NCBI GenBank assembly: GCA_963834935.1
Contig: CAWIDS010000001.1
Location: 301,500 to 365,499 of the forward strand
Source: Candidatus Nomurabacteria bacterium
Lineage (GTDB): Bacteria > Patescibacteriota > Minisyncoccia > Phycocordibacterales > CALRBL01
Direction: 5' to 3'
DNA length: 64,000 bases
Shown: in pieces, positions 6,487-41,993 of the stretch
Position numbering within the stretch: the stretch's first letter is position 1
How the letters are laid out: each line of letters opens with the position of its first letter
Program-made: the position numbers and the translations under genes
Notes under the pieces: generated by a model
Databases searched by the model: none
The model's input: only the letters and a program-made list of their open reading frames with translations
Told to the model about the DNA's origin: nothing

Positions 6487-7203
6487 TCATATCTCCAACA
6501 CCCATCTTTCCATCTCATTCCAAAAGTCGATGATTCCCCGATGCGCATCATGGTACATCGAAGCCAGCCGGAAAAGCATTCCTTTGATCTCACTCTCGGA
6601 GTAGCTCTTCAAAGCAGACTTCGTCTTGGTGAAGACGAAAGGAGAGATGCCTGCCTCGGCGGCATCTCTCGCTTGAGCCACCAGCGCCATGCTTTTGACC
6701 TGCCACCACAGCATTCCGTGGACTTCCTCTGCGACTGAGCCCCTGCCCTTTGCCTCGATCAAAAGCATCCAAAGCCTTTTCTTGTCGCGCGCTACGAATG
6801 CATCCGAAAGGGCGAATGGATTGTATTCGCTCTTTTTCTTTTCTTTCAGCTGTTCTATAAGTTGGACTTTCTGCGCGTGCTTCTCCACCACATCGAGAGT
6901 CTTCTTGTCGAGTTCCTTTTCTAGGAATATGAAGACGTTTTCCGAGCCTGCGATGTCTTTGAGGTTCCTGATGACCTCTTCCTTTATTTCCTTGGCCTCG
7001 AATAGGTTATCGAAAAAGACTACGTATTTCGATTCGAAAAGTCCTTGGCCTGCTACGAGATCGGCAAGTGAATGTTCGGCGTAGTCGAGCGAGCTGATGC
7101 GGAAAAAGACCGCGTCCGGCCTTTTCTTCTGAAGGCTTTCGGTTAGTTCGCGCGCTTTCAGCCTCGCCTTCTCGTATTCGTTTCCGTAAATGAAATAGAT
7201 CAT
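6487..7203 (-). CDS. holA: DNA polymerase III delta subunit-like (HolA-like)
   Basis: Internal start MIYFIYGNEYEKARLKA... at 7203 abuts polA stop (7205); N-terminal I-Y-x-x-Y-G-x-E motif and size (238 aa) fit short delta subunits; operon position immediately after polA. Confidence 0.5.
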   Translation of the reverse strand: MIYFIYGNEYEKARLKARELTESLQKKRPDAVFFRISSLDYAEHSLADLVAGQGLFESKYVVFFDNLFEAKEIKEEVIRNLKDIAGSENVFIFLEKELDKKTLDVVEKHAQKVQLIEQLKEKKKSEYNPFALSDAFVARDKKRLWMLLIEAKGRGSVAEEVHGMLWWQVKSMALVAQARDAAEAGISPFVFTKTKSALKSYSESEIKGMLFRLASMYHDAHRGIIDFWNEMERWVLEI

Positions 7204-7204
7204 C

Positions 7205-9562
7205 TTAGTTAAGGGCTTCGAGCTCTGCCCAGTTATTTCCCATGTGTGCATTCGCTATAATCAGCACGCCTTCGGACTGCTCTTTGGTGAACACCGACTC
7301 CATTATTTTCTTGATCTCTTTTGAAATTTCGCCTACTTCGCTTTCTTTAATCTCATACACCAATTCATCATGCACCTGGAGCAAGAGATGCGCTACGCCG
7401 TCCTTTTTTTCCTTCCTGAGATATTCGTCGATGCGCGACATTGATATCTTGATAATGTCGGCTTGGGTTCCTTGGATTGGCGCGTTGATGGCCATGCGCT
7501 CGGCGCTAGCGCGAAGGAATGGTAGATGCGAATTGATGTCGGGAAAATAGCGGCGCCTTCCGAACATGGTGGTGGTGAATCCTTTCTGTCTGACTTCCTC
7601 TTTCACCTTTTCCAGATAGGAAGTGAGAGTAGTGAAAGTGGCGAAGTAATTCTGATAGAATTCTTTGGCTTCTGCCGTCGTTCCGCCGATATTAGCTCTG
7701 AGGGCATTCACCCCCATGCCATACAAGATTCCGAAATTAATGGTCTTAGCTTTTTTCCTCATCTCGATAGTTACCTCATCAGCTGGCACTTTGAAGACTT
7801 GTGCGGCTACCGCGGCATGGACATCCTGCCCTTCCTTGAAGATAGAGATGAATTTCTCATCCTTCGAAAGCAGGGCGGCGATGCGAAGATCGATCTGGGA
7901 ATAATCCACCGACACAAGCTTGTAGCCTTTATCGGCCACGAATGCATTGCGAATGGCGCGACCGAGCTCTGTCTTGATCGGGATATTCTGCAGGTTTGGA
8001 TTCTCGGAAGACATTCGGCCGGTCGTGCTTCCTGTGAGCAAAAAATGGCTATGTAAGCGCTGGTCCTTGTCCACGAGCTGCGGGATGGTGTCTATGTATG
8101 TGGAAAGTAGTTTCTGGAGCTCGCGATGCTGAAGGATGTGATTGATGATCGGATGAAGGTCGCGAAGCTTCAAGAGCTCCGATTCCTTGGTCGAGCGGGC
8201 GCCGCCTGCAGTCTTCTTCATGCCCTTGCCTTCGAGCTTCAGTTTGTCGAAAAGGATCTCGCCGAGCTGTTTGGGAGAATTGATGTTGAATTCCTCACCT
8301 GCCGCGTCAAAAATCTCTTTCTCGATGCTGGAAAGCGTTTTATGGTATTTTTCGGAAAGCTTTTTCAAATAAGCCACATCTATCCTTATTCCTCGCTCTT
8401 CCATCTTCTGAACCACCGGGATAAGAGGCAGCTCGATTTTCTCGTACACATATGACAGATCATTTTTCTTGATTAGTTCATATGCTTTCTTCTCGGCTTT
8501 GTCGAAATCATCCTCATTAGTGATCCTAAAAAGATCGTCTTCGGTCGGCTTAGGAATATTCGAGTCCAGCACGTAAAGTGCGAGTGCGAGTCTGACATCA
8601 AGCGGCTTTGCTTCAGCTGCCGCTTCTTCATTTTCCTGTTCTCCGCCTTTCTGCTCAAGCGATAGAGCCTCGCGAAGCTTCGGACCAAGCGTCCTGAATT
8701 CATATTTTTTGAAAAGAGCCTCGGCTTTGTCAACATCGATACTTTCCTTTATGTTTTTCTCGGGCAATTCGAACTTGATCGGCGCATCCTTGCGGATAGT
8801 GGCAAGCATCTTGCTGAATAACGCCTCTTCTTTGCCTTCTTTCAACAAGCCGATGATGCGCGGCGAAATTCCCGCTTTCTCGAATTTCTTGTCGCTTTTT
8901 TCAAGCTCTTTATACATTTCTTCGAGCGTGCCGAATGAAGTGATCAACGTCGTCGCTGTCTTTTCTCCGATGCCGGCAATGCCGATAATGTTATCCGACG
9001 GATCGCCGCGAAGGCCTTTGTAATCCGGGATTAGCTTCGGTAGGAAACCAAAACGCTCAAGGACCGCCTTCTCGTCGTACATTATGGTGTCCTTTATACC
9101 CTTCTTCAGCGTGTATACCTGCACTTTCTTTCCTTCAATGAGCTGAAGTGTGTCCATGTCGCCTGAAGCGATAATTATATCCGTTCCCTTATCGTCCTTC
9201 AGTTGCTCAGCGATCGTGCCGAGCATGTCATCCGCCTCGAAGCCTGCCTTGTCATACATGGGAATATTAAGTGCTTCGAAAATCTCACGAGAGGTATTAA
9301 GCTGCTTGATGAGCGCGTCATCTATTTTTTTTCTGGTGCCTTTGTAGTCGCTATATACTTCATGCCGATGAGTCTTGCCCTTGAGATCATAACAAGCGAC
9401 GATGTAATCAGGCGAGAATTCCGAAATTATTTTCAAGATCATGATCGAAAGCCCGTATAATGCTCCGGTCGGCTCGCCTGAAGAAGTAGAAAAATCAGGC
9501 AACGCATGATACGCGCGATGAATGAGTGCGTGACTGTCGAGTAGAACTAATGTCTTTTGCAT
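7205..9562 (-). CDS. polA: DNA polymerase I (5'-3' exonuclease + polymerase domains)
   Basis: 785 aa; N-terminal 5'-nuclease region (LVLLDSHALIHRAYHAL), C-terminal family A polymerase motifs (RRxAKxxNFGxxYG, QVHDELV). Confidence 0.95.
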   Translation of the reverse strand: MQKTLVLLDSHALIHRAYHALPDFSTSSGEPTGALYGLSIMILKIISEFSPDYIVACYDLKGKTHRHEVYSDYKGTRKKIDDALIKQLNTSREIFEALNIPMYDKAGFEADDMLGTIAEQLKDDKGTDIIIASGDMDTLQLIEGKKVQVYTLKKGIKDTIMYDEKAVLERFGFLPKLIPDYKGLRGDPSDNIIGIAGIGEKTATTLITSFGTLEEMYKELEKSDKKFEKAGISPRIIGLLKEGKEEALFSKMLATIRKDAPIKFELPEKNIKESIDVDKAEALFKKYEFRTLGPKLREALSLEQKGGEQENEEAAAEAKPLDVRLALALYVLDSNIPKPTEDDLFRITNEDDFDKAEKKAYELIKKNDLSYVYEKIELPLIPVVQKMEERGIRIDVAYLKKLSEKYHKTLSSIEKEIFDAAGEEFNINSPKQLGEILFDKLKLEGKGMKKTAGGARSTKESELLKLRDLHPIINHILQHRELQKLLSTYIDTIPQLVDKDQRLHSHFLLTGSTTGRMSSENPNLQNIPIKTELGRAIRNAFVADKGYKLVSVDYSQIDLRIAALLSKDEKFISIFKEGQDVHAAVAAQVFKVPADEVTIEMRKKAKTINFGILYGMGVNALRANIGGTTAEAKEFYQNYFATFTTLTSYLEKVKEEVRQKGFTTTMFGRRRYFPDINSHLPFLRASAERMAINAPIQGTQADIIKISMSRIDEYLRKEKKDGVAHLLLQVHDELVYEIKESEVGEISKEIKKIMESVFTKEQSEGVLIIANAHMGNNWAELEALN

Positions 9563-9563
9563 A

Positions 9564-9998
9564 TTAAAAATTCATAGTCTCTATTATGCGGGTATTCTCA
9601 TCCGCATGCTCGAACCGTATCGTCGGCAATGTCTCTGGAAGGATGTCGCCTCCCCTTTCCGGCCATTCGACGAATACGAGAGATTCTGGAGCGGAAATAG
9701 CCTCCTTGAAACGCAACGCTTTCAGCTCTTCAGGATTCTCGATGCGGTACAGGTCGATATGTATGAAGTTTTTCCAAAAGGAATGGGTGGTGACGTACGA
9801 TTTCTGTATGACGAACGTCGGGCTGTTTATCGTCTCAGTTACGCCTAATATATCGCCGACAGCTTTTGAAAAAGTGGTCTTTCCCGATCCCAGATCCCCG
9901 ACCAGCCTTACCAAGGTGATTTCCTTGTCCTCAAGCTCTTCGACAACAAGGCGGGCTATGATGCCGGTTTCTTCCAAGGACGGAGAGGTGTAAATCAT
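9564..9998 (-). CDS. tsaE: tRNA threonylcarbamoyladenosine biosynthesis protein TsaE (YjeE-type P-loop ATPase)
   Basis: 144 aa from ATG at 9998 (MIYTSPSLEE...); Walker A GDLGSGKTTF; the longer 284-aa ORF-track version is an artefactual N-terminal extension into the GC-rich antisense of the neighbouring gene. Confidence 0.8.
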   Translation of the reverse strand: MIYTSPSLEETGIIARLVVEELEDKEITLVRLVGDLGSGKTTFSKAVGDILGVTETINSPTFVIQKSYVTTHSFWKNFIHIDLYRIENPEELKALRFKEAISAPESLVFVEWPERGGDILPETLPTIRFEHADENTRIIETMNF

Positions 9999-10010
9999 GT
10001 GGCAATGATA

Positions 10011-10052
10011 ACAAAAAAGGAGCCCTATACGAAATGAATCGTAAGGGCTCCT
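10011..10052 (-). terminator. Rho-independent terminator for gene 10076..11335
   Basis: Perfect 9-bp stem AGGAGCCCT/AGGGCTCCT (17-nt loop) followed on the minus strand by T7 run. Confidence 0.5.
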
Positions 10053-10075
10053 GGTTGAGGTTTGTTTGTTATCGT

Positions 10076-11335
10076 TTAGCGTTTTCCGCGACCGCCGCCA
10101 CCCGAACGCATTTGCATGCGAGGAGCGGAGGAAGTTGCGAAACGCTGTTGCTGGATCCGCGGCGCCTGTTGCGCTTGCGAACGGAACTGCTGGACCGGAC
10201 GCGACACTTGCTGCGTCGGACGGGACAGAGCCGAACGGGCGGTTGAGGTTTGGGAACCTGACGCCCTCGTCTGGCCTGAAACGCGATTCGACGATGCCGA
10301 CTGCGTGCGGGACAAGCGCTGGACCGGATGCGGAGCAGAGCTCTGCGTGGTCTTTGCCAGAGCTGACGTCGGCTGGACAGAAGGAAGTGTGGAAGCCGAA
10401 GCTGCCACTGATTTCCAACTAGTCAGCTTGGGCGTTGTTGCAGTCGCAAGCTGGCCGTTGGCATTGTATGCCGGGGCGGAACGTGCGACGTGACTCGACT
10501 TCTTGGCGATGGCTGTTGATGCCGTCACTGCCGATGCTGCAGGCGTTGCTGCTGCCGTCGAATTGCCTGACTCGACTACATTGCCGTTCGCATCATACAC
10601 CGGTTGTCCGGACGCATGGCTGATCGTGTTGGGATCAGGCGGCGGGCAGGGTGTAGGATTCGGGCACGGAGTCGGGTTGCATACGGGAGGCGGGGAATAA
10701 TGCGGCGGGCACGGAGCCTGCTGTACTACTCTCACCGTGGTCGTGACATTATTGACATTGACGATCCGCTCACTTTGCTGGCATTGACGCTGGCGCTCAG
10801 GTTGATAGTAAGGCTGATAGTAGCCAGAATCATAGTTTGAGTTCTGGCAACTTGCAACATCCTGCAAAATGTCGCCAGCCCATCCGATAACCACCCCGAA
10901 GTCATGACCCCAATCGATGCTCCTGTTTTGGACGCATGTATCGGTAGTCGCTACAGCCGTCTGCTCCTGGCCTTCATCGGCGGCGACGAGGCGATTGCCA
11001 CAATCGTAGCGATAACAGATGTTTCCCTGCGAGTCGGTGTAATAATACCCCGGCACCAGGTTAAAGCTGCTGACGGCGGCGCGCGGCGTGTTGCCGTACT
11101 CCTCCATCAGGTAACGCTTGCCGCAACGGGAATCGCTCTCGCTGACGTAAATCTTCACGTAGCCGAGCTCTTCGATGTGACGGCGGAGCTGACTGAGAGT
11201 GCGAAGGTGGCTATCGCCCGTGTTTTTTACGCACGGGATGCCGCCAAACGTATCTTGCTGTTCCGCCGACGAAGTCGAGATGAACCCGACGAGAACTGAA
11301 ACGAAAACAAACAAACTGACAATGTGCTTTTTCAT
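10076..11335 (-). CDS. Secreted Cys-rich/Pro-rich low-complexity protein, compositionally atypical (GC-rich)
   Basis: 419 aa; signal peptide MKKHIVSLFVFVSVLVGFISTSSA; Cys-rich N-domain, PCPPHYSPPPVCNPTPCPNPTPCPPPDP stretch, Ala/Ser/Thr/Gln-rich tail ending RSGGGGRGKR; markedly higher GC than flanks. Confidence 0.7.
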   Translation of the reverse strand: MKKHIVSLFVFVSVLVGFISTSSAEQQDTFGGIPCVKNTGDSHLRTLSQLRRHIEELGYVKIYVSESDSRCGKRYLMEEYGNTPRAAVSSFNLVPGYYYTDSQGNICYRYDCGNRLVAADEGQEQTAVATTDTCVQNRSIDWGHDFGVVIGWAGDILQDVASCQNSNYDSGYYQPYYQPERQRQCQQSERIVNVNNVTTTVRVVQQAPCPPHYSPPPVCNPTPCPNPTPCPPPDPNTISHASGQPVYDANGNVVESGNSTAAATPAASAVTASTAIAKKSSHVARSAPAYNANGQLATATTPKLTSWKSVAASASTLPSVQPTSALAKTTQSSAPHPVQRLSRTQSASSNRVSGQTRASGSQTSTARSALSRPTQQVSRPVQQFRSQAQQAPRIQQQRFATSSAPRMQMRSGGGGRGKR

Positions 11336-11479
11336 GCTGACAATCCTTTCTTGGGACTTTGAGGTTCTACAGAATTTTTGTCCTTTTTGGCTGCCCTTTC
11401 CGCGTCTTGCGGGAGGGTGGCCTAATCTGGATATGCCTATATAATATCACCTTTTGTGAAAAAAGTCAATGCCCTATAA

Positions 11480-13192
11480 ATGGCTCATCTTGGCTATTTG
11501 GAGTACAATAGCGGCATGGTTCATTTCGACGAAGACGAGCAGAATAGGCACCTCCGCGACCTCAGATTGCAGGAAGAGGAGGAGCTTGCCGAAATACTCT
11601 CAAAGAAATACGGCGTGGGGTATATAAACCTCGCCCGTTCCCCTATCAGCACCGACGCTCTCGGCCTCATACATGAAGAAGAGGCTAAGATGCATGGCGT
11701 TGCGGCTTTCGCTCTTGTCGGCAAGAAAGTAAGCGTCGGAACTCTCGCTCCTGAAGATGAAACGACGAAAGACATTGTTGCTTCTCTTTCAGGCAAAGGA
11801 TACATTCCGACTCTCTATCTGGTTTCTCATGCCAGTCTCGAAAAAGCCTGGTCTCGTTACTCAGACATCACTGCTTCGAACAAAAGCAAGAAAGGTGCGC
11901 TTGATATTTCCACCGAAGAGATCGAGCAATTCCTGAAAGAGAACGAGAAGATGAGCGATGTCCGTGCCCGAATCAATGATGCGATCGTCCTTCAGACTTC
12001 GTACCGCATTTCCCGCATCCTTGTGGTCATCCTTGCCGGCGCGCTCTCATTGAAATCTTCCGACGTGCACATCGAGCCTGAAGAAAAGGAAGCGCGGGTG
12101 CGTTTTCGTCTCGACGGCGTGCTTACCGAAGTGGCTTCGTTCAACAACAGCACCTATTCCCTCCTGCTCTCGCGACTGAAGCTGCTTTCGAATCTCAAAT
12201 TGAATATAAAAGAAAACGCGCAAGACGGGCGTTTCAGCATCCATATCGAAGATGATGATATCGAGATCCGTACCTCTACCATTCCGGGCGCTTATGGCGA
12301 ATCAATCGTCATGCGTATCCTCAATCCGAAATCCTTGAATGTCTCGCTCGAGGAAATGGGAATTCCCGAACATCTTTATGAGACCTTGATGAAGGAAATC
12401 CAGAAGCCCAACGGAATGATCCTGACCACAGGACCAACAGGATCCGGAAAGACTACCACTTTGTATTCCTTCATGAAGAAAGTGATGAGCAGCGAAATAA
12501 AGATAATCACCATCGAAGATCCTATCGAATATCACCTTGCTGGAGTGACGCAGACCCAAGTGGAAGTAAAAAAAGGGTATACCTTCGCCAATGGGCTGCG
12601 TTCGGCCCTCCGTCAAGATCCTGATGTGATAATGGTTGGAGAGATCCGAGACAAGGAGACGGCAGAAATCGCCATCAACTCGGCACTTACCGGCCACTTA
12701 GTGTTTTCGACGCTCCACACCAACAATGCCGCCGGCGCTTATACCAGACTCGTCGACCTCGGCATGAATCCGAAGATTATTCCCTCAGCCTTGAATGTGG
12801 CCATCGCTCAGCGTCTCGTCAGGCGCCTCTGCAAGCAATGCGTAAAGAAAGTGCCTTTAGTTGGAGATGAGCTATCTCGGGTAAAACCCATCTTCGACAG
12901 GATAAAGGAAAGAGGCTTGCTCCAGGAAGATCTGGATATTTCCTCGCACTATCAAGCAGGGGGTTGTGAAAGTTGTCACATGACCGGATACAAAGGCCGG
13001 GTCGGCGTCTTCGAGGCAATATTCAAAAGCGAAGCGGTGGAGAATGTGGTGCGAGACAATCCAAGCGAGCGAGATATTCAGAAGGCAGCTCTCGGCCAAG
13101 GGTTCATGACTTTGGCGGAAGATGGCGTCGTAAAAATCCTTAAAGGAATAACTTCTATAGAAGAGTTGGAACGGGTAGTGGAACTGATTTAA
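11480..13192 (+). CDS. pilB: Type IV pilus assembly / type II secretion ATPase (PilB/GspE family)
   Basis: 570 aa; N-terminal T2SSE_N-like domain, Walker A GPTGSGKTTTLYS, Asp box, His box, C-terminal Cys cluster (CKQC...CESC). Confidence 0.9.
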   Translation: MAHLGYLEYNSGMVHFDEDEQNRHLRDLRLQEEEELAEILSKKYGVGYINLARSPISTDALGLIHEEEAKMHGVAAFALVGKKVSVGTLAPEDETTKDIVASLSGKGYIPTLYLVSHASLEKAWSRYSDITASNKSKKGALDISTEEIEQFLKENEKMSDVRARINDAIVLQTSYRISRILVVILAGALSLKSSDVHIEPEEKEARVRFRLDGVLTEVASFNNSTYSLLLSRLKLLSNLKLNIKENAQDGRFSIHIEDDDIEIRTSTIPGAYGESIVMRILNPKSLNVSLEEMGIPEHLYETLMKEIQKPNGMILTTGPTGSGKTTTLYSFMKKVMSSEIKIITIEDPIEYHLAGVTQTQVEVKKGYTFANGLRSALRQDPDVIMVGEIRDKETAEIAINSALTGHLVFSTLHTNNAAGAYTRLVDLGMNPKIIPSALNVAIAQRLVRRLCKQCVKKVPLVGDELSRVKPIFDRIKERGLLQEDLDISSHYQAGGCESCHMTGYKGRVGVFEAIFKSEAVENVVRDNPSERDIQKAALGQGFMTLAEDGVVKILKGITSIEELERVVELI

Positions 13193-13680: not shown

Positions 13681-14211
13681 TTAATCGGCGTTGGTATAGA
13701 CGTTCTGCACCTCGTCATTCTCTTCGAGCTCGTCCACAAGCGAGCCGAGTGTTTCGAGATCCGTGTCGGAGAGTTCAATAGTGGATTTCGGATGCCAAGC
13801 GCCTTCTTTTTTCTCGAAGGCCCAAAGCACGCTGCCAATTCCAGCAAGGGTAAAGCCGCTCTTTGAGAGAATATGTTTTATTTCAGCGGCGGCTTTGTTC
13901 CTGTTGCCCGTCATCGCTTCGATGATCACCGCTACTCCGCCTGGGCCATAGCTTTCATAGATGATGGTCTCCAATTCTTTTTCGTCAGATAAGCTTCCTT
14001 TCTTGATAGCGCGCTCGATATTGTCAGATGGCATATTCACCTCCCTTGCCTGCTTGATGGCGAATTGCAGATTGGCGGCATTCCTGTCTCCGCCAGCTTT
14101 TTTCGACTCGACGGAAATAAGCCGGGCAAGCTTGGTGAATATTTTGCTCTTCTTGGCGTCAGTGGCCTCCTTCTGCCTTTTTATCTTTGACCACTTATTG
14201 TGTCCGGACAT
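13681..14211 (-). CDS. yebC: YebC/PmpR-family transcriptional regulator (short form)
   Basis: [15 protein letters not shown]-terminus diagnostic of YebC family; classic ruvC-yebC-ruvB neighbourhood. Confidence 0.85.
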
Positions 14212-18261: not shown

Positions 18262-19365
18262 CTACTTATTCATAGGCATGACAAGGTAAAAAAAGCTTTT
18301 ATTCCCGACTCCTTTTATGATAAGGGGTTTATTCAAGCCATCAAAAAGCAAGGAAACACTGTCGGAATCTATGGATTGGAAGCAATCAAAAATATTCTTG
18401 TAGTTGAAGCTTATTTGCAAATCTTCTCCCTCAAGAGATCCTGAAAGGAGGGTAACATTCTCACCAACATCGGTATTTTTGGTCTTTATTTCCATTTTCT
18501 TGTAAGTAGGGGAAACGGAAACCACCACCCTATTGAACGAATCTGAAAAAACATGAGCTAGTTTGAGTGCGTTGAGAAAATCTTGTTTCAATACCACTGC
18601 TTCAGTCTTTGATTCCTTGGGAATAATCTGCTTATATGAAGGGAAATTACCCTCAACTACCCTTGAAATGAGATAGAAATCATCAGAAGTGAAGGAAATC
18701 TGGTTTTTATCCAGACAAACCTTTATTTCCTCATCTTTTTCCTCAAGAATGCGGCAGATATCGGAAATATTCTTAGAAGGGATTAATATTTGATCAAAAT
18801 CAAGCTTTTCTTTAGTTTCTATCTTTTTTTCAGCAAGACGGAAGGAGTCAGTAGCTACAAAAACAAGGTTCTTGTCCTCGGGATAAATATAAACACTTGA
18901 AAGCTCGGGTTTGATTGTTGATATAGAGGCACAATAAGCGACAGAACGGAGCCCTTTGCAAAAGTCCTTGGAATTGATAGAAAACTCCTTACCGGCGTTT
19001 ATACGAGGTATGAGGGGAAACTCTTCAGAGGCTTGCAGCTTGATAGAAGATGATGATTTGTCGGACGAAACCATTAAAAGATCGTCTTTTCTTTCAAATT
19101 TAAGGCTCTTTTCCTTATCAAGGTTTGAAACGAAATTGCCTAAAGTCTGAGCAAGGACCACGGCCACACCCTCCTTTTCCAATTTTACAGGTATGGATAT
19201 CTCTATTCCTAGATCAAGGTTGGTTGATTTGATGATAAGTGAAGAATCCTTACCTTCCAAATAGACGCATTTCAGAATCTGATTAGATATAGAGCCCTTT
19301 CCTGCTATTTTTTCAGCTTTGGAAAAGGCTTGAGAGAAGCGATCTTTAACTGATTCGAATTTCAT
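18262..19365 (-). CDS. dnaN: DNA polymerase III beta subunit (sliding clamp)
   Basis: 367 aa, three-domain clamp architecture, directly downstream of dnaA. Confidence 0.9.
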   Translation of the reverse strand: MKFESVKDRFSQAFSKAEKIAGKGSISNQILKCVYLEGKDSSLIIKSTNLDLGIEISIPVKLEKEGVAVVLAQTLGNFVSNLDKEKSLKFERKDDLLMVSSDKSSSSIKLQASEEFPLIPRINAGKEFSINSKDFCKGLRSVAYCASISTIKPELSSVYIYPEDKNLVFVATDSFRLAEKKIETKEKLDFDQILIPSKNISDICRILEEKDEEIKVCLDKNQISFTSDDFYLISRVVEGNFPSYKQIIPKESKTEAVVLKQDFLNALKLAHVFSDSFNRVVVSVSPTYKKMEIKTKNTDVGENVTLLSGSLEGEDLQISFNYKNIFDCFQSIDSDSVSLLFDGLNKPLIIKGVGNKSFFYLVMPMNK

Positions 19366-19601
19366 AGACGGAGTATACTATTAATAATTTTTTTTTGCTA
19401 TATAAAAGAGATATTTAATACTTAGGAATGTGGATAGGTGGAAAATTCATTTTATGCTTAAGAAATAAAGATTAAATAAAGTTTTATTGAATTATTCCTA
19501 TGGAAAAAATGTGGAGTAAAAAGAATAACTTTCAAATAAGGTCTGATAAGTGAAAAGTTATTCACACAACTAACAATTCATCCACACCTTTTACACAGTT
19601 T
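19366..19601. other. Candidate oriC (AT-rich dnaA-dnaN spacer with DnaA-box-like 9-mers)
   Basis: TGTGGATAG (19429-19437), TTATTCACA (19558-19566), TCATCCACA (19578-19586), each 1 mismatch from TTATCCACA; flanking poly-T/AT-rich tracts. Confidence 0.55.
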
Positions 19602-20948
19602 TTACAAGAGGAGTTTCAACTCCTCTATTTCTTGAAGAAGGGTTCCGTCAACCTTCAGATCCTTTTTAATCTTGTCGCAAGAATGTATTACGGTGGTGTG
19701 ATCCCTTCCTCCTAATTTCTGTCCGATTGAAGGGTAAGATATGTTGAATATCTCTCTCAGAAGGTACATAAGCACTTGTCGTGGTTTAACCACTTCTTTT
19801 TTTCTTGATTTATCATAAATGCTTTCTTCCTCAATATTGTAAAAGCCAGAGACTATTTTAGTGACTTCTTTGATTGAGAGGTTCTTTACTGGCCTTTTAT
19901 TCACTTTTATAAGATTCTTTATCTCATTAAGCAACGGTTCTTTTCCTTTCGTCTCCATATAATGGACGATATTGTTGAAAGCCCCCTCAATTTCGCGGAT
20001 ATTACCTTCTATGTTGGCGGCAACAAACTCGATTATGGGGGTGCTAAGGGAAATGTTGTTCATCAAAGCCTTCTTTTTGACTATTTCAAGGCGTGATTCG
20101 TAATCAGGTTCAGGAATATCAACGATCATTCCAGCCACAAAGCGTGATTTAAGGCGATTTTCAAGGTTTGGTATGTAATTAGGATGAATATCCGAAGAAA
20201 AGATGATTTGTTTGTTGTTGTCATAGAGATAATTAAACAAATGGAAGAGTTCTTCTTGGGTTTTCTCCTTGCTGAAGAGGAATTGGATGTCATCCATAAT
20301 AAAGACATCGTATTTGCGGTATTTTTCCTTGAAAAAATGCATTTTATTCGCTTGGAGACAGTCGACCATCTCTTGGGAGAAGCGTTCTGAGGTAATATAG
20401 AATATTTTTTTTACCGATCCGGTGCTTTTTATGTGATTTCCGACTGCTTGCATGATGTGTGTCTTGCCCAAACCTGTCTTTCCATAGATGAAGAGAGGGT
20501 TGTAAGCTACTGGCTTGTTTATTATTGCTTGGCAAGCAGAGTAAGCGAGCTCGTTGAATGGCCCTACGACAAAAGTATCAAAAGTGTAACGTGGATTGAG
20601 ATTATCCTCCTTATTTACTGCTAATTTATCCAAAGGAAGCTCTCTTGTGTTTTTTGGTTGGGAGTTTTCTTTCTTTATTGAAGAGGCAAGCTCACTCTTT
20701 TGCTTGTCTGACACTGCATAAACAATAGAGCGCACGGATGGATCAAGATTTCGGAGAAGCTTCAGGAAAATATTGTTGTATTTATCCACAAGCCATGAAA
20801 TAACAAACGGATTAGGTACTCCAATGGTGATAACCCCCTCTTCCCTCTTTAGAATATGGGTATCTTTAAACCAAGTGTTGAATGAACCGAGAGATACAGA
20901 CAATTCTATTTCAACCAAAACGCTTTCCCATAGTTTTTTATCGTCCAT
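19602..20948 (-). CDS. dnaA: Chromosomal replication initiator protein DnaA
   Basis: 448 aa; AAA+ Walker [17 protein letters not shown]-terminal DNA-binding helix-turn-helix ([17 protein letters not shown]). Confidence 0.95.
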
Positions 20949-20966
20949 AATTCAAATAGTATATCG

Positions 20967-20975
20967 TTATCCACA
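20967..20975. promoter_or_regulatory. Perfect DnaA box TTATCCACA in dnaA/rpmH divergent promoter region
   Basis: Exact consensus 9-mer 19 nt upstream of dnaA start. Confidence 0.6.
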
Positions 20976-21026
20976 GGCTTGTCTAACTTGTGCATATCTT
21001 GCAAGTTATGTTATAGTCTTCTCACT

Positions 21027-21161
21027 ATGTCACGAACATACCAACCAAAGAAAAGAAAGCGAGCAAAGACCCATGGATTTCTTGTAAGGCAGAAGACAAA
21101 GACCGGAAAAAAGGTCGTAGCTCGACGCCGACAAAAAGGAAGAAAAAAGCTAGCTGTTTAG
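21027..21161 (+). CDS. rpmH: 50S ribosomal protein L34
   Basis: [30 protein letters not shown]... 44 aa from ATG at 21027. Confidence 0.9.
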
Positions 21162-21166
21162 ACTTT

Positions 21167-21478
21167 GTGTTCTCAAAAAACCAACGAATTAAAAAAGCCG
21201 ACTTCGAAGATATCTTAAAAAAGGGGAAAAATTCAAACAAACCCCTATTTTCGTTGGTTTTTTTGCCTGGAACAGGTTTGAGGTGTGCAGTTGTAGCCTC
21301 GAAAAAGGTCTCAAAAAAGGCTGTCATCAGGAATAGGAATAAGCGCCGGGTAAGGGATCTTCTTAAAAAAATCCTAAAAGAAAAAAATAAAGGCTCATAT
21401 ATTATCTTTATCAAGAAAGACCTTGCTGAAATTCCCCACCTTTCAATATCCAAAGAGTTGGAATCCATGCTAGACTAA
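21167..21478 (+). CDS. rnpA: RNase P protein component
   Basis: 103 aa, GTG start, basic protein directly after rpmH; conserved RNR-motif region (NRNKRRVRD). Confidence 0.8.
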   Translation: MFSKNQRIKKADFEDILKKGKNSNKPLFSLVFLPGTGLRCAVVASKKVSKKAVIRNRNKRRVRDLLKKILKEKNKGSYIIFIKKDLAEIPHLSISKELESMLD

Positions 21479-21488
21479 TCAACATCTT

Positions 21489-22217
21489 ATGTTCATAGCC
21501 ACCTTTTTCGGACTTTTTTTCTACAATCCACTTTACAACGGCCTTGTCTTGCTTCTTTCTTACCTCCCTTCTCCTGACATAGGCTGGGCGGTCATTATTT
21601 TTACCGCTTTCATCAAGCTTTTGCTTTTCCCTCTCTCAAGGCAGGCTGTCCGTACTCAGATGAAGCTTAAGGAGGTAGCTCCCGAGCTTGAAAGGATAAA
21701 AGAGCAATATAAGGATGAAAAAGAGAAGCAAGCCAAGGAAATGATGCTTGTCTACCAGAAAAATGACATAAATCCTTTCTCAGGATTCCTTCTCGCCTTG
21801 ATCCAGATCCCAATCATCCTCGCCCTCTACTTCATCTTCCTTAAGGGGGGACTTCCGGTCATAAATGCCAAGATACTCTACTCTTTCGTGAAGATTCCGG
21901 CCAACATAAACACTCATTTCCTTAATCTGATAGACGTAAGCAAGCCTCAGATAGTGCTTGGCATCCTCGCCGGCATCAGCCAATATGTACAGGTTCAGTT
22001 CTCAGTTCCGCCCATCAAGAAAGTCGATAACCCAGGCTTCAAGGACGACCTCGCACGCAGTATGAACATGCAGATGCGCTATATACTCCCCTTCTTCGTC
22101 TTCCTTATCTCATTCAAGGTCTCAGGAGCGGTCGCTCTCTACTGGATAACGGGAAATCTCTTCACTATCGGACAGGAATTATATATGCGAAAGCATCTAA
22201 AGAATAAGAAAGCTTAG
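21489..22217 (+). CDS. yidC: Membrane protein insertase YidC/Oxa1 (short form)
   Basis: 242 aa, 5 TM helices, conserved rpmH-rnpA-yidC order. Confidence 0.85.
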   Translation: MFIATFFGLFFYNPLYNGLVLLLSYLPSPDIGWAVIIFTAFIKLLLFPLSRQAVRTQMKLKEVAPELERIKEQYKDEKEKQAKEMMLVYQKNDINPFSGFLLALIQIPIILALYFIFLKGGLPVINAKILYSFVKIPANINTHFLNLIDVSKPQIVLGILAGISQYVQVQFSVPPIKKVDNPGFKDDLARSMNMQMRYILPFFVFLISFKVSGAVALYWITGNLFTIGQELYMRKHLKNKKA

Positions 22218-23410
22218 ATCTTGAGGTTCCAAAGGGTAAGGTCTCTCTTATTCATGAAAAGAAGGTAATCTTCGTCGGGAGAAAGTTTTGGATTGATCAC
22301 GTCGATTTGGACACCTCCCTCATTCTGGAGATTTGCTACATTGCTGGTGTTTCCAGTTAATGCGTCAATTGTCTCTATATTGTCGTTGAAGAAGACTTTT
22401 CCTTGATACCATACATCTGGATACACTCCGTTGGGAATGCTTGAGGTGACGGCACAGTAAGCCAAAGAAGGCATCTTTACAGACCATACGCATTTATCAG
22501 GTATCAAAGGACTTGAAAGAGGGTTTTCTACTCCTGTCCTTATATTCAATATGCCGGAAACCAAAATGTCATTCTTATTTTGCGAATAGATGGCGTATTT
22601 TGCATCAGGCGAGACCGATACCACAAGGCCGTTGCGGGCACTCAGAAGCTCTGTCATCGCTTTTGTCTTTATGTTATAGAGGTAGCTCAGGTTCTGAGTC
22701 TTTGCCGAAGGCGCAGTTGTCAGAAGAGCGATGCCGCTGCTTACCATCTGGACGTTCCATTTTTCAACAGCGCTTGAAAAGACAATGCTTTTCTTTGCTG
22801 GGAAGGAATAAAGTGATCCTTGCGCCCCATTCGGAGTGCTTTCGATGCCGAAATAGCTGTCTTTGGCTGGAGAAAGAGATAGTGAGCTTATTTCCGATGG
22901 AAGGAATATTCCAGTCGTCGAAGAATTGCTTATTGAGCCGATAAAAGTCTCTATTTTTTCAGTTGCATCGTCAAGCGTCCTGAAAATGACGTTATTGCCG
23001 CCCTTTCCTATGTATGCCTCATACACTTTGGGAATGGTAGTATTCGAAATCTTGCTTATAGCAAGGTTGTCCGGAGCAGTCTGGAAGATGTTTCCTGTAG
23101 CCCGATCGACGTATTCGATGCCAGTGAGTTTTGTGGTGAGCGTAATGAAGTCACCCCCCGCAACCGGCGTGGTAGTGATCTGTCGGAGTCTGGGAATAGA
23201 TGTTGAAGAGGTGCTTGTCGAGATTATTGCCAAAGTCGAAGAAGAAAGTATCGTGCCGGTAGTGTCTACAAGCTGTCCTGTGGCAGTTACTGAAGAAGGG
23301 GTGGGTTTTGATACTTTAGTATTAGTGAGATAGAAATATCCTCCGACAAGCGCCCCCAATACCAGTATGAATGCGATAAGGATTACGGCTGTAAGATACT
23401 TTCGTGACAT
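22214..23410 (-). CDS. Membrane-anchored Thr/Ser-rich protein with probable beta-propeller domain (hypothetical)
   Basis: 398 aa; N-terminal TM helix, long beta-rich ectodomain; first... last gene of the T4SS-like locus. Confidence 0.55.
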   Translation of the reverse strand: MSRKYLTAVILIAFILVLGALVGGYFYLTNTKVSKPTPSSVTATGQLVDTTGTILSSSTLAIISTSTSSTSIPRLRQITTTPVAGGDFITLTTKLTGIEYVDRATGNIFQTAPDNLAISKISNTTIPKVYEAYIGKGGNNVIFRTLDDATEKIETFIGSISNSSTTGIFLPSEISSLSLSPAKDSYFGIESTPNGAQGSLYSFPAKKSIVFSSAVEKWNVQMVSSGIALLTTAPSAKTQNLSYLYNIKTKAMTELLSARNGLVVSVSPDAKYAIYSQNKNDILVSGILNIRTGVENPLSSPLIPDKCVWSVKMPSLAYCAVTSSIPNGVYPDVWYQGKVFFNDNIETIDALTGNTSNVANLQNEGGVQIDVINPKLSPDEDYLLFMNKRDLTLWNLKI

Positions 23411-23442
23411 GTATATATTATATACTAAATAAAATTTTATTT

Positions 23443-24399
23443 TTATTCTCCTCTATAAAGTGGACCCCAATAATGATTCTTTTGTGTCCCAGTAATACTA
23501 CCTGTATCACTGATTTGATTTTTTAATATTATGATAGCTGCTTGAGTGTTATATTTAGGATCATCTATTATTTGTTGTGGAGTAACTCCGTATTTTGCTG
23601 CAAGGCCTTGCACTGCGTTATCTCCAACACTAAGAGAGTATAAACCTTCTGAAGAAAAGTTTGAACTGCCATCTTGAGAATGTGCCGTAGTATTATCACT
23701 TGGATTAAAGCCAGATTCGCTATTTGCAATATTTGCGAGCAAGCTCACATATCCCTGCGCTGTTACTGTCCCGTCTGGAAAATATTTTGCTGCATCTGAA
23801 GGGCTAAGGTTTAAAATTCCCGAATCTTGTATTTGTTGGAGCGTATAAGCATTCATATCTGTAGGAAGCCCATTTGCACCGTCTGTAGGAAAATCTGTGC
23901 CTGATTGGGTGCCGTCTGCTATGTCTCCGCTTCCGTCCCCAGGAGAAGTTCCATCCGAACCACTCGCCCCGACATTATAACCAACATTTGTTACTTGGAT
24001 CGGAATAGGTGTTACTAATACAGACGTTATATTTAAATTGCTTCCTATAAGCCTCGGATCGACGAATTTCAAGATGACATAAGAGCCTAATGCGACCAAT
24101 AAGCCGAGAAGGGCAGCATTGATACGGTCCTGGCCTTCGGTTTTTTTCCCCATCGCATCGCTCGACATGTATTCGATACCCCCAACGACGATCATGAGGA
24201 CCGCAAGCGCACTGCAAAGGGCGATGCCAAGGGCGTACATTGAATTCAGATATTGGCTGAGGGAATTGCTACTGCTTATATCTACAGGATTAGTAACATA
24301 ATTAGAAATAGGCGCTAAGGGCACGTAGCTTTGAGCAAGAGCGATGAAAGGAGAAATCATTATTAAAGCGAGGATTGCGAATAAAAGAGTTTTTTTCAT
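23443..24399 (-). CDS. TrbC/VirB2-like pilin fused to C-terminal SLT/VirB1-like lytic transglycosylase-like domain
   Basis: Signal peptide, then two hydrophobic helices separated by charged loop (YALGIALCSALAVLMIVVGG / INAALLGLLVALGSYVILKFV) as in conjugative pilins; C-terminal ESGFNPSD...EGLYSLSVGDNAVQGLAAKYG resembles SLT ES-x-FNP...GLMQ core. Confidence 0.45.
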   Translation of the reverse strand: MKKTLLFAILALIMISPFIALAQSYVPLAPISNYVTNPVDISSSNSLSQYLNSMYALGIALCSALAVLMIVVGGIEYMSSDAMGKKTEGQDRINAALLGLLVALGSYVILKFVDPRLIGSNLNITSVLVTPIPIQVTNVGYNVGASGSDGTSPGDGSGDIADGTQSGTDFPTDGANGLPTDMNAYTLQQIQDSGILNLSPSDAAKYFPDGTVTAQGYVSLLANIANSESGFNPSDNTTAHSQDGSSNFSSEGLYSLSVGDNAVQGLAAKYGVTPQQIIDDPKYNTQAAIIILKNQISDTGSITGTQKNHYWGPLYRGE

Positions 24400-24400
24400 A

Positions 24401-25429
24401 TTAGAAATTTATTTTTACCGATCCGGTGGCGCCTTGGAGGATTCTCGCTGAATTCTCGAGAATTGCCTCGATCACCGAGCTTCCCTTCTGGTTGGTTGAA
24501 TTCCTGAAAGTGGCATAGTTCTGATTTTCAGCCTGGGCAATAGGATTTCCGTTGATAGACCATGAATATTTAAGTGTCGGATCGCTTTTTAATACCGCGC
24601 TCGCATAGTATGGATAGGCGCCGACAGTGACTTCGGAATCAGTCATTTGGAAATCATTTGCTCCAAGCTCAGTATTGAAAAGGGTTCCGTACAAGGGATT
24701 TTTCTCATAGAACATCATCTCAGGCTCTTCCGGGGAAACTAACATCGAGCCTGTGCCGGTAATGCTTCCGTCCAAAGAAGATACGTCTACTTGCACCAAG
24801 ACGTCTTTTCCGAGGATGTCTTCAGTATAAGAAAGGGTGTTTTTACCGTAGCCAGAAAGGCTTCCCTGCACCGTGCCATCGATTGTCCATTTATAGATAA
24901 GGTTTTTAGGATTTACGCTTGCTCCGCTTGGCGTGAAGAGGTTAGGCATGGCTATGAAAGTGATATCCCCTTCCTTGGTAAAGATAGCCTTTCCTTTATA
25001 AAAAGGAGGAGTATAGCCTGAAGCTTCATAGATGATTGGAACTTCCTGCGAAGAAACGCTTGCCGTCTTTATGATGTCCGGGCTGCCGTCTGAAGGAGTG
25101 ATGTCGGCTGAGACGTTCTGAACGACTCCTTTATCCCCAGCTGTGACTGAAAAAGTGGTAAGGCCGGTATCTTGCTGGACAACTTTTCCGTTCACTGACC
25201 AAGAAATAGAGTCGGCGTTCAGGTCAGTTCCATAAGCAGCCAAGGTGAAGGTGACCGTATCGCCAGGATTAGGATTGGTCGGCGTCACGTCCAATGTCAC
25301 CTGCTGCTGGATGTCGCCTGATTGGATCGGATCATAACTTTGTGCTGAGCTTTTTTGTGCAAAGTAAGAGAAACATACGAAAGTAAAAACAATTAACAAA
25401 AAAACAAAGAGAATTGAACTTTTTTTCAT
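24401..25429 (-). CDS. Secreted beta-rich protein (hypothetical, Ig-like repeats)
   Basis: 342 aa, signal peptide, repetitive Thr/Ser/Gly-rich beta-sandwich-like segments. Confidence 0.55.
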   Translation of the reverse strand: MKKSSILFVFLLIVFTFVCFSYFAQKSSAQSYDPIQSGDIQQQVTLDVTPTNPNPGDTVTFTLAAYGTDLNADSISWSVNGKVVQQDTGLTTFSVTAGDKGVVQNVSADITPSDGSPDIIKTASVSSQEVPIIYEASGYTPPFYKGKAIFTKEGDITFIAMPNLFTPSGASVNPKNLIYKWTIDGTVQGSLSGYGKNTLSYTEDILGKDVLVQVDVSSLDGSITGTGSMLVSPEEPEMMFYEKNPLYGTLFNTELGANDFQMTDSEVTVGAYPYYASAVLKSDPTLKYSWSINGNPIAQAENQNYATFRNSTNQKGSSVIEAILENSARILQGATGSVKINF

Positions 25430-25469
25430 CGCCTTAATTATATACCTATTTTTTTACAAAATCTAACCC

Positions 25470-26324
25470 TCACAAAACATTTGCAAACTTATAACCTACA
25501 ATACCATTAAAAGGTCTTATACCCGCATTATGTTTATTCCAAGCAGCCATAAGCACCGGATCACTTTTATCATCGTTACTAATACTTCCATTTCTCATTA
25601 TATCTGCTGCTTTTGATAACTTTATATTATCCTCTCTTGTTCTATTCGATTTTTTATTTAATTGGTCTAAGGCATCATTGCTAGATTGCTGATATTCTCG
25701 CATTCTTTTATTTTCTGCTTCTGCTGCAAGGAATTCTCTTTCTGTGGTATTCCGGTCATTACGAATATTTAGTGTTTTAATCTCTTCTTTTTCCTCCTCA
25801 ACCTCTGATTGTTGGAGCTGTTTATCTTGTACTTGTTTAGACTGTTCCTGTTGCTGCCTATCTCGAACCATCTGTAACCGCGTCATTTTCTGCTGCTGAT
25901 CCTGCTGGACTTGTATCTGCTGCGCTTTTATCTGGACTTCATTCTGCTTTTCCCATTTCTTGTTGTTCTGAACGGCAAGCCACCAGTTGTAACAATGATC
26001 AAGGCTCCAGAATGGCAGTGCATCGAGGTCGGGGATTTCTTCCCCAAGAAAAGTAGCGACCATTCCTAGGACTTTCATGGTCATATCATCAGAACCACTT
26101 CCAACCTCTCCTCGTATCCATAGATAAAAAGAGTAGGATATCTCTACTCCAATATCTATAAAGCGGTTTATGATTACTCCCGATTCAAAAAAAAGGTCCA
26201 AAAGAAACTGAACAAGGTCAATTATTAGGAATGCTCCGAGAACCAAACCCCACTCCGTGTTGCTTATTTTGCTTTTGGTGATCTGGGCCATAGGTTTACA
26301 GCTTGCGAGCCATATCCTCTTCAA
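25470..26324 (-). CDS. Membrane protein with Gln-rich coiled-coil C-terminal half (hypothetical; start uncertain)
   Basis: 284 aa ORF, 2 TM helices then QQIQVQQDQQQ... coiled coil; immediately downstream of VirB4-like gene. Confidence 0.45.
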   Translation of the reverse strand: MKRIWLASCKPMAQITKSKISNTEWGLVLGAFLIIDLVQFLLDLFFESGVIINRFIDIGVEISYSFYLWIRGEVGSGSDDMTMKVLGMVATFLGEEIPDLDALPFWSLDHCYNWWLAVQNNKKWEKQNEVQIKAQQIQVQQDQQQKMTRLQMVRDRQQQEQSKQVQDKQLQQSEVEEEKEEIKTLNIRNDRNTTEREFLAAEAENKRMREYQQSSNDALDQLNKKSNRTREDNIKLSKAADIMRNGSISNDDKSDPVLMAAWNKHNAGIRPFNGIVGYKFANVL

Positions 26325-28117: not shown

Positions 28118-28118
28118 G

Positions 28119-28619
28119 TTATTTAGTATGAATCGGCTTCTCTATCTCTCCAGGGTTGAATGACTTGTAGAAAAGCTCGATCAGCTCCTCATTTTCAAGC
28201 TCAACCATCCTGATGCCGCAGCGCGTAAGTCCTTCTTCGACCACCGCCACCCTTTGCTCGAGCTGGCCGATGTTTTCTTTGAAAGTGACATTCTTGTCTT
28301 CGGCATTTCCTTTCTTCGGCCAAAAACTGGGGGCGTATAAGGAATCACTACAAAGAAATTCTTGGTCATGATATTGCTGCTTTCGGTAAGCGTCCTGACG
28401 AATTCGACATATTGCCTGACTTGGAGCTTCATCAGGTCGGTTGTCTGTTCCGTTTCCCTTTTTTCGAGTATGTCGAGATAAGGCTTGATGTTGGAGGCGG
28501 CGCGATTGGACGCATATTTGTACTGAAAAGTTCAGGGAATTGAGGAAATTTTGGAACTGGCCGATGATTGCCGCCTGCTCGTCAGATGATTTCAAAGCGA
28601 AGTTGAGTGATGAAGCCAT
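28119..28619 (-). pseudogene. Hypothetical ~170-aa protein upstream of VirB4, two frameshifts at homopolymer runs
   Basis: Protein-like translation switches frame twice (…NSLNF|QYKYASNRAASNIKPYLDILEK…VVIPYTPPVF|WPKKGNAEDKNV…ELENEELIELFYKSFNPG); junctions in TTTT and CCCCCAGTTTTT runs. Confidence 0.45.
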
Positions 28620-28746
28620 AACGATTGCCCTAAAGCGATCCGTATTCTAAGCACAACGAAATTATCTTTTATTTCCTCAATAGGGATGAATTCCTGAGTG
28701 GCTTTGGTTTGTGAGGCGAGTGACATATCGTGCTAAGTATACCCTA

Positions 28747-29196
28747 TTAGACTTTAATATTTAAGAGATCATTAAGGCTTTTTTCTTCTCCATCGTATTT
28801 TTTCGAAGCAAGGCTGCCTTTTATATCTTTTAAACTGCTTCTTCTTGTTGTAGGAATGGAGATGATAGCTGTCGGATCATATGACATGTCGATTTCCTTC
28901 GTGGGTACCGGCTTATTTTCTTTTTTCCAGATGTAAAGCTTGTTTTTGGTGAAAAAAAGCACGGCAGCTTGGACTTCGTCAAGGAATGGTCTGTTGTTAG
29001 GCTTGTAAAAAGTCAGGGCGACAAAGAAAGCAAGTACAGGCAAGGCAAGAGGGATGCCGATGAATGCGGGCGTCACGAAATGGTAGATGGTATAGGAAAT
29101 GCCGAGCCCTCCCGCAAGATAGATGAATTCCTTGAACGAAAGAGAAAAGAAAATCTTATCCTCGATCTCGATGAATTGTGGAACCTGGAACTTCAT
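28747..29196 (-). CDS. PrgI/VirB3-like small two-TM membrane protein
   Basis: 149 aa; MKFQVPQFIEIEDKIFFSLSFKEFIYLAGG... layout matches PrgI/VirB3-type proteins that precede VirB4 in Gram-positive-type T4SS. Confidence 0.45.
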   Translation of the reverse strand: MKFQVPQFIEIEDKIFFSLSFKEFIYLAGGLGISYTIYHFVTPAFIGIPLALPVLAFFVALTFYKPNNRPFLDEVQAAVLFFTKNKLYIWKKENKPVPTKEIDMSYDPTAIISIPTTRRSSLKDIKGSLASKKYDGEEKSLNDLLNIKV

Positions 29197-30964: not shown

Positions 30965-30989
30965 GCTGACATTGTAACATATTCGTCAA

Positions 30990-32075: not shown

Positions 32076-32079
32076 ATAA

Positions 32080-32430: not shown

Positions 32431-32437
32431 TTTTTAA

Positions 32438-40139: not shown

Positions 40140-40149
40140 CAAAAAATAA

Positions 40150-40443: not shown

Positions 40444-40469
40444 AGTTATTTTGCTTAGATTAGCCTATG

Positions 40470-41966: not shown

Positions 41967-41993
41967 AAGAACCACAGCTTAGCACACATTCTA

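Follow-up and report, generated by a model that had tools for sequence, protein, structure and literature searches.

A GC-rich gene for a putative envelope protein in the conserved pilB–tsaE slot of a Candidatus Nomurabacteria bacterium

The core hinge of immunoglobulin G (IgG), CPPCP, is a disulfide-linked hinge of proline and cysteine. The mycobacterial heparin-binding haemagglutinin HBHA is an adhesin with a polycationic disordered C-terminal tail. Extracytoplasmic Ser/Thr-rich disordered regions occur in streptococcal membrane-associated proteins, according to one report (PMC12041528). At the RNA level, pairing between the 5′ and 3′ ends of one mRNA is described in two further reports, on icaR of Staphylococcus aureus (PMC3868564) and on hbs of Bacillus subtilis (PMC5737220). 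Here we analyse a gene whose product and transcript recall these systems in part. It lies on the reverse strand at positions 10076-11335 of a 64,000-nt stretch of DNA from a Candidatus Nomurabacteria bacterium (contig CAWIDS010000001.1, positions 301,500 to 365,499), and the whole of this stretch is called the window below.

An initial annotation of the sequence took the gene for a compositionally foreign, horizontally acquired surface or secreted factor. Comparison with related genomes makes it probable instead that the gene is native, a long resident of a conserved slot between pilB and tsaE, and that it encodes a rapidly diverging envelope or surface protein. A homologue lies in the same slot of the nearest relative, and slot counterparts with the same GC bump are found in the clade. 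Therefore we believe that the gene is not a recent import.

10076-11335, minus strand: coding sequence of 419 amino acids (aa) plus stop, ATG start (open reading frame list; homologue in the relative L001 by BLASTP; third-position substitution excess)
11480-13192, plus strand: PilB-type secretion/pilus ATPase with T2SSE and MshEN domains, the divergent neighbour (domain match)
9564-9998, minus strand: tsaE, 144 aa, the downstream neighbour (Pfam TsaE and relatives)
7205-9562: polA, after tsaE (same block order as in relatives)

A conserved slot and its diverging occupant

Relatives were loci retrieved by PolA, together with metagenome contigs, and about 51 related loci were considered. By PolA the window belongs among the Patescibacteria, with a genome of Paceibacteria type. 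About 50 loci keep the block ruvB-yebC-ruvC, pilB (on the opposite strand), slot, tsaE and polA. The nearest relative is L001 (JAYTST010000009), whose PolA is 78% and PilB 83% identical to the window proteins; its slot holds a gene for a 469-aa protein on the same strand, divergent from pilB and followed by tsaE and polA. The two slot proteins are 49% identical over 150 head residues (BLASTP E 2e-44) and share one layout, which consists of a signal peptide, four head cysteines, a DWG...GW segment, QNS.Y..GY.QPYY, three cysteines in a CPP stretch, the motif ISHxxGQPV[YF]DANGN[IV]V and a long basic low-complexity tail. The GC bump is present in L001 as well (0.51-0.60 against about 0.41 around it).

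Differences between the two genes are more frequent at third codon positions than at first and second positions throughout (0.56 against 0.35 and 0.27 for residues 25-125), which confirms the reading frame. This excess bears on the alternative that the gene is a spurious open reading frame (ORF) in GC-rich, stop-poor non-coding DNA, a notion suggested by the several antisense ORFs of 118-131 aa and the false extension of tsaE in the same DNA. We give that alternative next to no chance, as the protein is conserved in L001 (E 2e-44 to 2e-46) with the third-position excess, and as its signal peptide, ribosome-binding site (RBS), promoter and terminator are all correctly placed and conserved. The protein itself changes quickly. 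Nonsynonymous divergence (dN) from L001 reaches 0.37 for the head, 0.49 for residues 25-262 and 0.92 for the barely alignable tail, compared with 0.16 for PolA, 0.13 for PilB and 0.34 for TsaE.

Each of the metagenome contigs L056-L061 and L072, with PilB proteins 67-74% identical to that of the window, carries an exported slot gene with a GC content of 0.51-0.59 against 0.39-0.46. Their products contain Tyr/Gly-rich segments, CPP repeats and basic Ser/Arg/Gly ends. The heads of the L058 and L059 proteins align with the window head (DFGG[IM]P...S.C...[YW]DCGN), with a phmmer E value of 3.5e-5 against a 38-sequence set. Where PilB is about 55% identical, the slot mostly holds a shorter exported protein or lipoprotein of low complexity, often with a GGGxRGGRR-like end. 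The signal type shifts from signal peptidase I (SPase I) in the closer relatives to a lipoprotein signal (...G-C lipobox) in many of the distant ones. CPP repeats are shared by the slot proteins of L051, L056/57/61/72 and L058/59, a Gly/Arg-rich basic C-terminus also in those of L011, L012, L019, L020 and L054, and GQPV[YFW], a pattern chosen after the sequences had been viewed, also in those of L007, L011 and L019. The slot proteins thus appear as mosaics of short motifs (CPP repeats, YLM(A)WEE, GQPV[YFW] and DCGN), which exceed shuffled sequences, the motifs again having been chosen after viewing.

Altogether, an exported low-complexity slot gene is present in about 39 of the roughly 51 loci, that is, the 36 that were scored plus L018, L030 and L054. 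The GC content of the slot gene exceeds that of its locus in all 36 scored cases, by 0.10 on average (Wilcoxon p 3e-11). In L018 and L030 the gaps measure 6.5 and 3.5 kb, where unrelated genes have been inserted between pilB and a small basic lipoprotein adjoining tsaE. From the losses and insertions together, the slot is conserved yet dispensable and open to insertions.

Beyond these loci the protein stands nearly alone. An exhaustive phmmer search with residues 1-265 against 1.84 billion representative proteins returned one match, the L001 homologue, and the cluster of that protein has two members, both without a name. Word-indexed homology searches with the full protein, the head domain and a four-sequence head alignment gave no match, and exact look-ups for the window protein and for PilB returned no record. 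For the window, L001 and other slot proteins, Pfam and NCBIfam yielded sub-threshold noise only (RHS_repeat, PepSY_2, CC, SslE). PDB sequence searches found a chance CD45 segment only, and a metagenome scan with head-domain patterns found no relatives. No paralogue of the gene is present in the window, and no Rfam family matches the gene region. A hidden Markov model built from the window, L001, L058 and L059 proteins recruited no further significant members among all slot proteins. Literature searches found no described protein of this kind from bacteria of the Candidate Phyla Radiation (CPR). Judged from their sequences, the slot genes are a fast-evolving, clade-restricted set of seemingly exported proteins without annotation.

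Base composition and origin of the gene

The composition of the gene was compared with that of the other 47 of the 48 window genes. Its GC content is 0.580, against 0.41-0.50 in the flanking regions and a window mean of 0.448 (standard deviation 0.039 over all 1260-bp segments). The maximum of the entire 64 kb, at 10041, falls on the gene, so the initial annotation was right to call it far GC-richer than its flanks. By codon position, however, the values are 0.575, 0.542 and 0.628, and the outlier is the second position (GC2, 0.542 against about 0.35 in other window genes), not the third (GC3). The bump is therefore due to GC2. The GC3 of 0.628 sits next to those of polA (0.576) and of the genes at 6487-7251 (0.638), 13681-14211 (0.608) and 40552-41469 (0.636).

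When the codon usage of the remaining 47 genes was applied to the amino-acid sequence, the expected GC content was 0.530, against an observed 0.582; amino-acid composition accounts for about 8 of the 13 excess GC points (about 60%). The initial annotation had expected the gene to be an outlier in GC and codon usage, and at synonymous sites it is not clearly one. The GC content at synonymous third positions (GC3s), 0.621, has rank 2 among the 48 genes and grades into the values of the neighbours. Native genes match the residual of +0.052 that the gene shows at synonymous sites (+0.051 for 40552-41469, +0.044 for 6487-7251, +0.041 for another and +0.036 for polA). Codon choice does deviate, with an excess of ACG (0.47), CCG (0.62), CGT (0.39) and GCA (0.37) and a z score of 10 against the window average or 6.3 against the class of GC3-rich genes. 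As two ordinary genes deviate comparably (z 7.2 and 4.6), composition gives no clear sign of a foreign origin. The high GC content is a property of the encoded product (Ala, Pro, Gly, Arg, and Ser/Thr through TCG/ACG), to which a smaller and variable synonymous part is added. In L001 the amino acids of the slot gene predict a GC content of 0.520 and 0.533 is observed, a residual of +0.013, and its GC3 of 0.423 is unremarkable.

The GC-rich stretch also affects the reading frames. Three antisense ORFs of 118-131 aa arise from it (10066-10422, 10116-10493 and 10904-11299), and the tsaE frame extends upstream on its own strand to 284 aa (9564-10418, minus strand), because stop-poor GC-rich DNA upstream leaves the frame open. 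The true tsaE start is at 9998 (144 aa), as indicated by the Pfam TsaE match and by the relatives, and gene callers could place it wrongly in this window. The initial annotation had described a spurious long antisense ORF across tsaE and ascribed it to the GC difference. Such an ORF of 135 aa does exist (9586-9993, plus strand), but no part of it falls within the GC-rich gene; the DNA there has a GC content of about 0.49, and the proposed cause does not apply.

Recent horizontal acquisition, with GC content and codon usage betraying a foreign donor, would account for the highest-GC stretch of the window, for the codon deviations (including the excess of ACG, CCG and CGT) and for homologues confined to one relative. 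It fails to account for the same position, architecture, promoter and terminator in L001, for clade-wide counterparts that all carry the GC bump, or for a composition that is atypical at GC2 rather than GC3, largely predicted by the amino acids alone and close to expectation in L001. No donor-like homologue was found among the 1.84e9 representatives. Marks of mobility are missing at the borders too. No tRNA gene lies near them (the closest are at 1183 and 40069), no recombinase or integrase is among the flanking genes between 1911 and 17992, where the neighbours are ruvB, yebC, ruvC, pilB, tsaE and polA, and direct repeats at the gene borders are short and at chance level. We consider a recent transfer very improbable, and the proposal of the initial annotation was not borne out. 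That annotation had also named conservation at the same position in all relatives as evidence that would speak against its proposal. The homologue in L001 and the counterparts in about 39 of about 51 loci agree with such conservation, whereas the slots that are empty do not.

For native, long residence of an envelope gene as we propose it, several points count as difficulties. Some 12 loci have an empty slot, with pilB–tsaE gaps of 25-281 bp (L003, L005, L006, L008, L024, L025, L027, L031, L033, L035, L040 and L049), so that the gene is dispensable or has moved. Beyond L058 and L059, statistics do not establish that the slot proteins are homologous, and the case would rest on position, architecture and short motifs. 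Codon choice deviates at z 6.3, and the gene may have been transferred long ago, into an ancestor common to the clade. Finally, the disulfides proposed below for the product presuppose that the organism oxidises extracytoplasmic cysteines.

The strong GC bump at this locus reflects amino-acid composition and not foreign origin, and it recurs in 36/36 scored relatives. Composition-based calls of genomic islands in CPR genomes hence need a check of GC3 and synteny. Elsewhere in the window, mobile-type genes lie far off on the minus strand between 45699 and 48423 (an IS1595-family transposase at 45699-46571 and a XerC/D-like tyrosine recombinase at 47398-48423), and a cluster of tRNA genes occupies 40069-42875.

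Architecture and proposed role of the product

An inspection of the 419-aa sequence, aided by the comparison with L001, divided the product into six parts.

11264-11335, minus strand: signal peptide, residues 1-24, with predicted SPase I cleavage between SSA and EQ (inspection and hydropathy; between AMA and DQ in L001)
10961-11263, minus strand: acidic head domain, residues 25-125, with C35, C71, C107 and C112 conserved in L001 (L001 comparison)
10724-10960, minus strand: middle region, residues 126-204, with an amphipathic DWG...GW...L, a Tyr/Gln-rich YYQPYYQP and a predicted beta-hairpin IVNVNNVTTTVRVV (L001 comparison and prediction)
10628-10723, minus strand: Pro/Cys hinge-like stretch, residues 205-236, with Cys 209, 219 and 230 conserved at 10-11 residue spacing (L001 comparison)
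10559-10624, minus strand: linear motif ISHxxGQPV[YF]DANGN[VI]VxxGNS, residues 238-259 (conserved in L001)
10079-10558, minus strand: disordered polycationic tail, residues 260-419, rich in A/S/T/Q/R/P (composition)

By inspection and hydropathy, the signal peptide consists of MKKH, IVSLFVFVSVLVGFI and STSSA, with cleavage before EQ. It has the basic n-region, the hydrophobic core and the small residues at -3 and -1 that Sec export and SPase I call for, and no further membrane segment follows. It is the sole hydrophobic segment of the protein, with a 19-residue Kyte–Doolittle hydropathy (KD19) of 2.15 compared with 0.95 or less elsewhere. No lipobox is found in the window protein, which has no Cys before residue 35, nor is there an LPXTG or PEP motif or a C-terminal hydrophobic segment; a basic C-terminus is present.

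The protein contains 11 cysteines (2.6% of residues against 0.6% in the window proteome), at residues 35, 71, 107, 112, 134, 163, 185, 209, 219, 224 and 230. For the head, one helix and then four strands are predicted, and AlphaFold models of it are of low confidence (predicted local distance difference test, pLDDT, 41 and 50). Everything between the signal peptide and the tail, residues 25-259, is acidic, with an isoelectric point (pI) of 4.9. PepSY_2 (PF13670) comprises small exported proteins in which a helix packs on a beta-sheet, a fold that the predicted head might share, and both homologues match the same profile region weakly (window residues 46-82, L001 residues 7-73). The L001 match partly covers the signal peptide, however, and L058 and L059 have no match. 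The gathering threshold is 24.3 bits; as the window protein scores 6.9 and the L001 protein 15.1, membership in PepSY_2 was rejected and the likeness kept as a lead only.

In the middle region, YYQP is encoded by a 12-nt tandem repeat of two copies. A tandem-repeat scan found two minor two-copy repeats only, so the tail is not a repeat array. The 160-aa tail has 21 Lys and Arg residues and no Asp or Glu (pI about 12), and it ends in MRSGGGGRGKR. The signal peptide, Cys-rich N-terminal domain, Pro/Cys stretch, A/S/T/Q-rich disordered tail and basic C-terminus that the initial annotation had listed can all be read from the sequence. Its view of the product as a secreted or surface factor fits the Sec-type signal, the lack of another hydrophobic segment, cysteines of the extracytoplasmic type and the predicted disordered tail.

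The Pro/Cys stretch reads APCPPHYSPPPVCNPTPCPNPTPCPPPDP. Similar to the IgG hinge, its cysteines stand within proline runs (CPP...C.P...CPP) at a spacing conserved in the homologues, and by this analogy it could give a stiff cross-linked stalk. Unlike the IgG hinge, to which it has no homology, it belongs to a bacterial extracellular protein and its disulfides are putative. The tail is similarly comparable with that of HBHA and with the streptococcal disordered regions, as each is a long low-complexity extracytoplasmic segment, here rich in Ser/Thr/Ala and strongly basic. There is no sequence relationship to either, this tail is Arg/Gln-rich where that of HBHA consists of Lys/Ala/Pro repeats, and the likeness is one of sequence composition.

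These features suggest a possible mechanism, which we put forward tentatively and at somewhat less than an even chance. After export and cleavage of the signal peptide, the acidic, Cys-containing head would fold with disulfides. The Pro/Cys stretch would form a stiff polyproline stalk, possibly cross-linking chains via disulfides in the manner of an antibody hinge. The polycationic tail would bind anionic polymers electrostatically, either in the wall of the cell itself or on a host bacterium. On this view the product would be associated with the envelope or act as a surface adhesin, with fast divergence of the parts that are exposed. It is plausible that the gene joins the lineage-specific surface and envelope proteins of CPR bacteria, a familiar class. 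Such bacteria live in attachment to other cells, and hardly any of their surface proteins have been characterised, which makes the family a set of candidate attachment or envelope factors.

Control signals and pairing of the transcript ends

A near-consensus promoter with an extended -10 element, together with an RBS and an intrinsic terminator, marks the gene as a transcription unit of its own. Its predicted control elements, with the two arms of a long-range inverted repeat, are the following.

11441-11469, minus strand: sigma-70-type promoter, TTGACT, 17-nt spacer, TG-n-TATTAT (extended -10; 10/12 matches, TG present)
11344-11350, minus strand: ribosome-binding site GAAAGGA, 8 nt before the ATG (read from sequence)
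10010-10052, minus strand: intrinsic terminator, 14-bp bulged GC-rich hairpin and U-tract, between the gene and tsaE (RNA fold)
11299-11316, minus strand: 5′ arm of the inverted repeat, mRNA nt +20 to +37, codons 7-12, GTTTGTTTGTTTTCGTTT (complementarity search)
10060-10077, minus strand: 3′ arm of the same repeat, from the second base of the stop codon to +16 (complementarity search)

The initial annotation had given the gene a terminator of its own, and we agree. It is formed by GGAGCCCUUACGA...UCGUAUAGGGCUCC followed by UUUUUU, with a dG of -29.3 for the 91-nt fold (z -7), and it was missed by a simple pattern scan because the stem is bulged. At the same position L001 has a hairpin of different sequence and a T-run. 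About 105 nt separate the promoter from the downstream ATG of the gene, and the -35 element comes within 11 nt of the start codon of pilB, which is read in the opposite direction. Thus the gene and pilB must share control DNA. As DNA, the 144-bp region between them (11336-11479; 7618-7753 in L001) has changed less than the coding sequence. Both promoter hexamers, the TG, about 25 nt after the -10 element (GGCATATCCnGATT) and the RBS are conserved in L001, where CCAAGAAAG is kept at the RBS.

This shared region invites the idea that the product is an accessory protein of a type IV pilus or secretion system, for example an adhesin or an envelope partner of PilB, co-regulated with it. In about 39 loci the slot gene lies next to pilB and points away from it, the short distance from -35 to pilB is part of a region conserved in L001, and the protein is exported. 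About 12 relatives nevertheless keep pilB with an empty slot, and the equal linkage to tsaE-polA suggests simple retention in a stable block. The N-terminus, MKKHIVSLFVF...SSA before EQ, has no prepilin class III signal, no pilin match was found for the window protein in Pfam or NCBIfam, and neither database gave similarity to Pil, Gsp or Com proteins. Furthermore, pilB stands alone here, apart from other pilus genes, and a second T2SSE ATPase with pilin-like neighbours is found at 29.6-33.7 kb. A pilus accessory role is therefore unlikely in our view, and we retain the reading of a diverging envelope protein.

The second ATPase region spans 29624-33712 on the minus strand. The T2SSE-type ATPase (29624-30964) is beside two Pfam-less exported Gly/Ser/Thr-rich proteins (30990-32075 and 32438-33712), which may be pilin-like or surface proteins. 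Their genes have low GC3 (0.30 and 0.42) and high GC2, and as composition outliers they are opposite in direction to the slot gene.

The arms of the inverted repeat join early codons, within the signal peptide, to the stop-codon region and are complementary at 17 of 18 positions. L001 has the same pairing (7775-7791 and 9159-9175) at 16 of 17 positions, with one compensating change (C-G here, A-U in L001) and the mismatch elsewhere. Pairings were ranked by an ungapped-helix score, because RNAduplex energies were too loose (target second of 48). The two ends of this gene reach 15, and no other of the 48 window genes exceeds 9 with its own 5′ and 3′ ends. Of 2256 mismatched 5′/3′ controls, one reaches at least 15. 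When the slot genes were scored, exceptional values came only from the window (15) and from L001 (14); none of 1386 controls reaches 13. The helix is part of the minimum free energy structure of the full transcripts (1435 and 1566 nt), with pair probabilities of 0.7-1.0. From these predicted folds we propose that the conserved helix between codons 7-12 and the stop region probably affects how the mRNA is translated or how stable it is. For the 3′ arm there is a second possible partner, the U-tract that follows the terminator (10004-10018).

As described in the icaR and hbs reports, those mRNAs likewise have a 3′-end segment complementary to a 5′ part of the same molecule; the helix here is predicted and conserved in L001. 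They differ in that the 5′ partner here would be coding sequence, codons 7-12, and not a Shine-Dalgarno sequence or 5′ untranslated region, and in that the 3′ partner includes the stop codon. The pairing is a testable case of mRNA end-to-end regulation in an uncultivated lineage.

The same repeats, 17-18 bp long, could also serve as recombination sites of a phase-variable gene, with inversion of the 1.2-kb body switching it off, because the inverted frame reads ...GTT ATC GTT TAG and is truncated after 12 codons. The repeat does bracket the mature coding region almost exactly, it is conserved in L001 with one compensating change, it is far beyond chance for 5′/3′ end pairs, and surface proteins are typical targets of phase variation. 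On the other hand, the predicted RNA helix fully explains the complementarity, no invertase or recombinase is nearby (the sole tyrosine recombinase, XerC/D-like, is 36 kb off), both assemblies are in the ON orientation, and known switches mostly invert promoters or swap 3′ cassettes rather than whole coding sequences. We regard phase variation as highly unlikely here. A broader idea, which we also judge improbable though less so, is that the locus is a "diversification slot" of the Paceibacteria clade, where a fast-changing host-attachment protein, with head and stalk linked by disulfides and a polycationic tail, would share control DNA with pilB and have its output set by the helix or by inversion.

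Two further groups of genes were noted in the window. Remnants resembling a conjugation or type IV secretion system are in 22214-29196 (minus strand), with a PrgI family protein at 28747-29196 and a TraG/HerA-type P-loop protein at 26787-27836. A run of Pfam-less signal-peptide proteins occupies 22214-26324 and adjoins yidC, dnaA and dnaN (18262-22217).

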